From Escherichia coli O127:H6 str. E2348/69 (GTDB taxonomy: Bacteria; Pseudomonadota; Gammaproteobacteria; Enterobacterales; Enterobacteriaceae), in NCBI RefSeq assembly GCF_000026545.1, contig NC_011601.1: a stretch of DNA of 64,000 nt. One strand, written 5' to 3'. The translations under genes were made by a program, and so were the position numbers. Below the pieces are notes generated by a model. That model saw only the letters and a list, made by a program, of their open reading frames with translations. It was not told the DNA's origin and searched no databases. Positions 20,724 to 22,010 of this stretch are shown piece after piece (within the stretch, counting starts at the first letter, position 1; every line of letters starts with the position of its first letter).

Positions 20724-22010
20724 TTACTTCAGATCGGCCTGTACCTGACGCAGCGGTTTCGCCCACGGGTTTTTGGCCTGGACATCGGCTGGCAATGTAG
20801 ATACCGCTTTTTTCGCCTCTTCTTTCGAAGCGTACACGCCAGAAACCAGGACATACCACGGCTGACCATTACGCGTCGTTTCATAGACAACGTAGTTTTT
20901 CAGATTCTCTTTCTTCGCCCAACCGTTCAGGTTGTCGTAGTTAGAGGAACTGCTCAGCTGCAGAGTGTAATGGCTGGACGGTGCCGATTTCAACGAACCC
21001 ACATTACCTGCGGTCTTCCCTCCAGCGGCTGGTGTTGCCGTGGTTTGCGCCGGGGATGCCGTCTGTACTGGAGCCGTAGTCGCCGTCTCTTTTGTTGCTG
21101 GCGTAGAAGTCGCAGCCGGTGCCTTCGTGCTCGCCACAGGAGCAGCTGGTTCAGTACGCTTCGGCGTCTGTGCTACCGGCTTCGGTTCCGTTTTCACGGT
21201 TGCTTGCGGTTTTTTCGGTTCAATCACCGCCTGCTGACGAGCTGGGCGCGTAGTGGCCGGACGTTCAGCGGTTTGCGTTTTCGCCGTGTCACGCGATGCA
21301 TTGCCATTGCGAACAGGCGCGACAGTCGCGGGTTCAGTCGGCAATGTAGAATTGACCGCCACATTGTTCAACTGTTGCTGATTTTGTGGCTGGGTCAGCG
21401 CATTGTTCAGGTCACCCTGCACTTCAACACGTTGTTGACCATCCGTTGCCGCCGGGGTTTGCCCTTGAGTCGGCGTAGAAGAGATCGGCGGCAGAGAAAC
21501 ATCCTGCTGAGTATTTTCCGCAGACGTGGTTCCCGGCGCTGGCTGCACGCCATTCGCCTGATCGGTCGCATTGCCTGCAAGATCAATACTCTTCTCGCCA
21601 GACGCGGTTTGATCGCTGGAAGAGGTCGAGGGGGCTTTTAGCGCAGAACCGATACCGATGATCAACAGCAGTAGAACCAGAATGCCGACGCCCATCATCA
21701 TATACTGACGAGAAGCGGGTTTACTGGCTGCTTTTTTGCGCTTACGCGGACGACGCTCTACGCGCTCTTCATCCACGGTTTCATCTTCGGATTCGTCAAT
21801 TTCTTCTTCGATTTCCGGTTCCTCATTGCGCTCTTTTTGCGCACGAGTCGGACGGCGATCGTCAGTGTCATCAAGTTCAATATCATCAAAATTGATCTGC
21901 GGTTCGCCACGTTCAGTACGCTCAGAACGTTCAGAAGATTGACGAGAACGACCAGTACGACGATCGCTGGGATCGGGTTTCAGCTCGTCTTCTGGTTTGA
22001 ATTCATCCAT
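20724..22010 (-). CDS. damX: Cell-division protein DamX (SPOR domain), 428 aa
   Basis: ORF 20724..22010 (-), 428 aa; acidic N-terminus, one transmembrane segment, a long Pro/Thr/Ala/Gln-rich low-complexity linker and a C-terminal SPOR-like domain. Confidence 0.93.

Follow-up and report, generated by a model that had tools for sequence, protein, structure and literature searches.

The middle of damX in Escherichia coli E2348/69: a compositionally biased linker of nearly constant length opposite a spurious antisense reading frame

The DNA analyzed here is a 64-kb window from E. coli O127:H6 strain E2348/69, whose ORFs place damX in the gene order aroK-aroB-damX-dam-rpe, with aroB upstream of damX and dam and rpe downstream. 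The damX coding sequence extends from 20724 to 22010 on the minus strand, between aroB and dam, and specifies 428 amino acids and a stop codon. It was assigned by profile, identity and synteny. The protein matched the NCBIfam DamX equivalog NF008153 with 849.6 bits against a cutoff of 256, residues 1-428 aligning with positions 1-424 of the 424 in the profile, and the DNA was 100% identical to E2348/69 damX in the collection of complete E. coli genomes. The neighbors of damX also agreed with the annotated loci of E. coli, Salmonella, Citrobacter and E. albertii. The profile match, the SPOR domain, the match to PDB 2lfv and synteny together confirm the damX assignment made in the preliminary description. 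Of 5426 complete E. coli genomes, 5425 had a single full-length match, annotated as damX. The remaining genome lacked a damX match, and one damX match was on a record labelled as a plasmid.

DamX belongs to the septal ring and is bitopic, and its SPOR domain binds to denuded glycans (literature); it interacts with PBP1B and PBP1A and stimulates both (PMC7642682). Septal localization and denuded-glycan binding are known from the literature for K-12 DamX (UniProt P11557 family) and would be expected of the allele described here, which is 99% identical to it and shares its cytoplasmic domain, transmembrane (TM) helix, long linker and SPOR domain. The two damX genes exhibit allelic differences only, amounting to 21 nt and five amino acids, and all five amino acid changes are in the linker. 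From these data we conclude that this is an ordinary feature of a known gene.

The interval under study, 20970-21700, encodes DamX residues 104-347, which run from the TM helix through the periplasmic linker into the beginning of the SPOR domain. All parts of the protein are described below with their coordinates on the minus strand. The cytoplasmic N-terminal domain (residues 1-103; 21702-22010) was delimited by its Glu/Arg/Asp-rich composition, and a basic stretch, RRPRKRKK, is situated immediately N-terminal of the TM helix. A 9-nt tandem array of 3.1 copies at 21909-21936 (ACGTTCAGA on the plus strand), identified by TRF, encodes SERSERTER in this domain; DamX of Salmonella and Citrobacter is five residues shorter at that site. 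The TM helix (residues 104-124; 21639-21701) was identified by hydrophobicity and by an AF2 helix at residues 103-119. The most hydrophobic 19-mer of DamX spans residues 106-124 (mean Kyte-Doolittle value of 2.66), and 95% of the positions in the TM helix were invariant across nine lineages. The segment at residues 104-124 is the only hydrophobic one, as befits a bitopic protein, and the positive-inside rule, together with the literature, indicates a cytoplasmic N-terminus. The SPOR peptidoglycan-binding domain (residues 341-428; 20727-20990) was assigned from Pfam PF05036, which matched residues 345-418 (E = 1.9e-14), and from PDB 2lfv, 'Protein damX', which aligned to residues 334-428 (E = 1.3e-55). 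In this domain 89% of the positions were invariant across the nine lineages.

The linker between these two elements contains 216 residues (125-340) and can be divided into three parts. The membrane-proximal part (residues 125-171; 21498-21638) is rich in S, T, N, G and Q and was classed as variable from its conservation, 44% of residues 125-172 being invariant among Escherichia, Salmonella and Citrobacter; it is 47-77 residues long in more distant homologues. A conserved central module (residues 172-232; 21315-21497) bearing the motif S-x-LPT-x-PATV was delimited by its invariant runs and constant length. Entropy, indels and conservation identified the remainder as a hypervariable A/T/P/K-rich tail (residues 233-340; 20991-21314), which holds most of the indels examined and to which the deletion variants map. 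The core of the tail, residues 278-329 (21024-21179), is a low-complexity, indel-prone part with the GC-richest and most AT-skewed DNA of the region, and only 21% of its positions were invariant across the nine lineages.

The linker had been characterized as rich in A, T, P and Q, as was indeed the case: 36 A, 35 T, 25 P and 22 Q make up 55% of its 216 residues. The order-promoting residues W, F, Y, I, L, V and C account for 11%, which is the kind of biased composition expected of a disordered linker. Entropy was lowest over residues 261-340, with a minimum of 2.78 bits at residues 281-320 (40-residue window). The 'runs' of T, A, P and Q attributed to the linker exist as compositional bias but not as homopolymers, as the longest run comprises three residues (QQQ, SSS).

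The DNA of the interval reflects this composition. Its GC content of 0.58 was at the 98th percentile of same-size windows and rose to 0.62 at 21000-21199. The AT skew was -0.21 (T over A on the plus strand), corresponding to the 96.6th percentile, and reached -0.47 at 21000-21199. On the coding strand of the linker, C occupied 50% of second codon positions and T 7% of first positions. The raised GC content and the A-over-T bias of the coding strand, i.e. T over A on the plus strand, arise because the linker uses mainly ACN, GCN, CCN and CAR codons. In contrast, the statement that the DNA is GC-skewed and repetitive was not upheld. GC skew over 20970-21700 was a negligible +0.038, at the 31st percentile of same-size windows, and TRF found no array within 20970-21700, the sole array being the one in the cytoplasmic part. 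A search of the interval for dispersed repeats yielded just two-copy matches of 12-16 nt, at chance level, and no peptide of five or more residues recurs within the linker.

Structural prediction was carried out with AF2 using a 22-sequence alignment. Residues 121-347 had pLDDT values of about 30-38 and contained no DSSP elements, in a model that was poor throughout (mean pLDDT of 39.7, with 50-67 in the SPOR domain). The model is consistent with disorder of the linker but, being so poor, is weak evidence for it. Regions could not be told apart by the Uversky charge-hydropathy test, which placed even the SPOR domain on the 'disordered' side. A preprint calls the DamX linker 'mostly unstructured' (bioRxiv 10.1101/2022.07.01.498525), and according to PMC7642682 no inner-membrane SPOR protein has a larger one. 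FtsN and DedD resemble DamX in having an N-terminal TM anchor, a flexible region rich in Pro, Gln and Ala, and a SPOR domain at the C-terminus. NMR showed the linker of DedD to be disordered (PMC7642682), and a short functional segment, the E domain, lies within the linker of FtsN (literature). DamX differs from both in having the longest linker (PMC7642682) and a large acidic/basic cytoplasmic domain.

Conservation within the linker was uneven. Half of its positions (50%) were invariant across the nine lineages, with invariant runs at residues 173-184, 191-206, 219-232 and 262-269, and the sense-strand dN/dS of the linker was about 0.1. A search with the linker alone retrieved 44 representative clusters from 1.84 billion proteins, and among the homologues detectable in this way the linker was 176-266 residues long. 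The central module maintained a length of 58-65 residues in homologues with overall identities as low as 43%, which include Buttiauxella- and Pantoea-type proteins, and ten of its residues were invariant to that level (P180, Q192, L205, S221, L223, P224, T225, A228, T229 and V230). In contrast, the tail varied from 49 to 145 residues across genera. DamX itself is dimorphic in Salmonella, at 425 or 429 residues, and ranges from 436 to 442 residues within one 90% identity cluster of Buttiauxella. We conclude that variation in linker length occurs mainly between genera and in the A/T/P-rich tail.

These results raise the question of whether the central module has a function of its own. It may be a periplasmic interaction segment analogous to the E domain of FtsN, which would leave the tail alone as a length-tolerant spacer; we regard this as a tentative proposal, less likely than not to be correct. 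The invariant blocks shared by Escherichia, Salmonella and Citrobacter, the ten invariant positions and constant length, and the low dN/dS all point in its direction, and the small number of clusters retrieved with the linker indicates that its sequence is specific rather than one of generic low complexity. However, no partner or phenotype has been tied to the segment, AF2 showed no structure there (in a weak model), and the literature treats the region as unstructured. Moreover, a rare variant, P0016, is devoid of residues 185-212, about half of the module, and another, P0006, is devoid of residues 201-213. Our literature search, which was not exhaustive and returned mostly irrelevant papers, retrieved no described motif or module in the DamX linker, which is weak evidence of absence. 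The sole mildly new observation of this study is that the linker has a conserved module of 61 residues at its center, and the division into module and tail could guide truncation experiments on DamX, a division protein.

The strand opposite the linker contains long open reading frames, as the preliminary description had noted. The longest, 20970-21641 on the plus strand, encodes 223 residues in exact codon register with damX (frame offset 0). The second, 21040-21237 on the plus strand, is in frame +1 relative to the damX codons and encodes 65 residues rich in V, A and G. The 223-residue product had been called rich in Arg, Cys and Ser. Arg was abundant at 26%, but Cys (6%) and Ser (8%) were modest, and Leu ranked second at 13%. 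No Pfam match was found for either antisense ORF and no NCBIfam match for the 223-residue one, and an Rfam scan of both strands of 19500-23500 at E<=1 was also negative. The promoter/terminator scan returned two promoter-like sites compared to 0.9±1.0 expected, with no sigma-70-like promoter site upstream of the 20970-21641 ORF, and only a weak GAG precedes the ATG of this frame.

The long antisense frame arises because a stop codon in codon register requires TTA, CTA or TCA in the sense frame, and these codons are rare in E. coli. None of the three occurs in damX codons 125-428. Such frames are common in this window, where closed antisense ORFs of at least 200 residues were found opposite 14 of the 45 long ORFs, the largest having 505 residues. 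Other codon-register examples lie opposite the ORFs at 4052-6595, 42825-45146, 45816-48149 and 55699-58092. The scarcity of Leu in the linker contributes as well, in that it lowers the antisense stop probability from 0.019 to 0.012 per codon and makes a stop-free stretch about 4-fold likelier (0.059 compared to 0.014 for average composition). The preliminary attribution of the antisense ORFs to linker composition was therefore only partly correct: the main cause is the generic codon-register effect, to which the Leu-poor linker adds a factor of about four. The case is like the codon-register ('frame -1') antisense ORFs of GC-rich or codon-biased bacterial genes, with its open frame exactly opposite the sense codons, and is in no way distinctive among them.

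A real overlapping gene on the plus strand, encoding an Arg-rich protein from 20970 to 21641, was considered as an alternative. The frame is closed from ATG to stop over 223 codons and was intact in each of the three E. coli backgrounds compared (E2348/69, K-12 and GF4-3), and synonymous resampling of DamX with the codon usage of the window gave a probability of just 0.096, i.e. about 10%, for an antisense ORF of at least 223 residues. Nevertheless, sense TTA, TCA or CTA codons interrupted the frame in all four non-coli species, namely E. albertii (codon 214), Salmonella (codons 176 and 337, among others), Citrobacter and the species represented by P0022. In addition, dN/dS was 0.96-3.1 in the antisense frame compared to 0.06-0.11 in the sense frame, so that the conserved frame under purifying selection that marks an overlapping gene was not seen. 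The lack of a Pfam or NCBIfam match, the absence of an upstream promoter-like site, the weak GAG before the ATG and the frequency of comparable antisense ORFs in the window argue against this explanation as well. We rejected it on the basis of the non-conserved frame and the dN/dS values, and consider a gene at this position to be extremely improbable. The view that the antisense ORFs are spurious is thus well founded; they and the strand asymmetry are passive consequences of coding. The long ORF opposite damX should stay unannotated, and other reports of long antisense ORFs within this window should be discounted likewise. It serves as a worked example of how commonplace codon-register antisense ORFs of at least 200 residues are (14 of 45 here).

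Linker length within E. coli was determined from complete genomes only (n = 5425). The damX span, inspected in 60 evenly spaced rows, was 1287 nt in all of them except the weakest match, in which it was 1299 nt. A 150-nt probe over the variable core (residues 284-333) was covered by at least 80% in every genome. When the probe contained a 12-nt insertion, 40 genomes, including strain HS, matched over the full 162 nt with 94.4-100% identity. The remaining 5365 genomes cannot carry the insertion because their scores were no higher than those of the 20 listed rows with the 150-nt form. DamX is therefore 432 residues long in 40 of the 5425 genomes (0.7%) and 428 residues long in about 99.3%, a count made over the 150-nt indel-prone region of residues 284-333. 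No large deletion was found anywhere in damX among the 5425 genomes. The preliminary expectation that linker length often varies between strains, to be examined by comparing E. coli strains, overstated the variation: within E. coli it barely applies, although length does shift between genera. With DamX so nearly constant in length in E. coli, its linker does not qualify as a strain-variable tract.

The insertion adds a second copy of a 12-nt unit that is present once in E2348/69, as ACGCCAGCAACA (TPAT) at 21093-21104 on the minus strand. The second copy is ACGCCAGCNGCA (TPAA), and the breakpoint has 8 nt of microhomology. The unit is doubled as TPAA-TPAP in the 40 E. coli genomes and also in E. 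albertii, E. marmotae and an Escherichia sp., whose DamX proteins are 432, 432 and 433 residues long, respectively, the last having one further residue elsewhere. As the insertion is also found in these other species, the 428-residue form is probably derived, judging from the sequences compared.

Larger changes were rare. A protein search identified in-frame deletions of 13-39 residues in E. coli/Shigella, but only as near-singleton clusters of one or two member sequences from draft or metagenome assemblies, compared to a main DamX cluster of over 6000 member sequences. Five of the deletion variants map within residues 287-328, and the identical 29-residue deletion occurs in two sequence backgrounds, P0012 and P0014. 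In the DNA of four deletion variants, microhomology at the breakpoints was 0-6 nt, P0016 having none. As they are near-singletons from draft or metagenome assemblies, the deletion variants could include assembly errors. Two further forms were observed. One, P0021, is a 350-residue DamX with 890 member sequences; it covers 82% of the protein, probably because a different start was called. P0007, a protein of 421 residues from an ENA metagenome contig, combines a Salmonella/Citrobacter-like cytoplasmic domain with an E. coli-like TM helix, linker and SPOR domain, which points to either recombination between genera or a chimeric assembly.

If the linker DNA were a contingency-type hypermutable repeat tract, frequent DamX length variants would be expected between strains. 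Several features are of this kind: the 12-nt dimorphism and its counterparts (428 or 432 residues in E. coli, 425 or 429 in Salmonella, 436-442 in Buttiauxella), the clustering of rare in-frame deletions at residues 287-328 with 2-6 nt of microhomology, the recurrence of the 29-residue deletion in two backgrounds, and the location of 20 of the 21 nucleotide differences from K-12 in the linker. However, the interval has neither a tandem repeat nor a repeated peptide of five or more residues, and in place of the array that a tandem-repeat contingency locus would have, it contains just one 12-nt unit. Length was the same in 99.3% of the complete genomes, with only 40 of 5425 differing and no large deletion in any of the 5425, the deletion variants are near-singletons, and every variant is in-frame. 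A hypervariable or contingency locus was rejected on the basis of the length census, and we consider it very unlikely.

The explanation that best accounts for these results, and that is very probably correct, is that the interval is the middle of damX, encoding the TM helix and a tether of about 216 residues to the SPOR domain, that the antisense ORF is a by-product, and that changes in length come from in-frame slippage or microhomology deletions. What the sequences show directly is the identity of the gene, the composition of the linker, the lack of repeats, an antisense frame that is not conserved, and the distribution of lengths. The disorder of the linker and its role as a tether are suggested by the literature and the weak AF2 model: a mostly unstructured linker would allow the SPOR domain to reach denuded glycan strands in septal peptidoglycan from the membrane. 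The long plus-strand ORF would be a by-product of the reverse-complement codon register, in a linker in which Leu is scarce. Short motifs of the CCN-GCN type in the A/T/P-rich tail would be the sites between which in-frame slippage or microhomology deletions occasionally change the length. This mechanism is a proposal, and the P0016 deletion, which occurred without microhomology, counts against it. In addition, 'tether' may be an incomplete description of the linker because its dN/dS is about 0.1 and the 61-residue module is kept down to 43% identity; the linker is not a freely evolving spacer.

The differences between E2348/69 and K-12 were unevenly distributed along damX, with 20 in the 648 nt of the linker (20991-21638) and 1 in the other 636 nt of the gene (Fisher p = 2e-5). 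For comparison, aroB had 16 differences in 1089 nt and dam had 7 in 837 nt. Synonymous divergence from E. albertii and Salmonella was also higher in the linker than in flanking damX sequence, by about 2-fold in most comparisons and by 1.3-fold relative to the Salmonella SPOR domain. Relaxed synonymous constraint, recombination tracts and constrained flanks are candidate explanations for the divergence of the linker. Finally, a sigma-70-like site was identified on the minus strand from 20993 to 20964, consisting of TTGAAA, an 18-nt spacer and TACACT; the number of sites in the scan was within chance (2 compared to 0.9±1.0). This site is in the 3' part of damX and faces dam, and alternative dam promoters within damX have been reported (PMC4981707).
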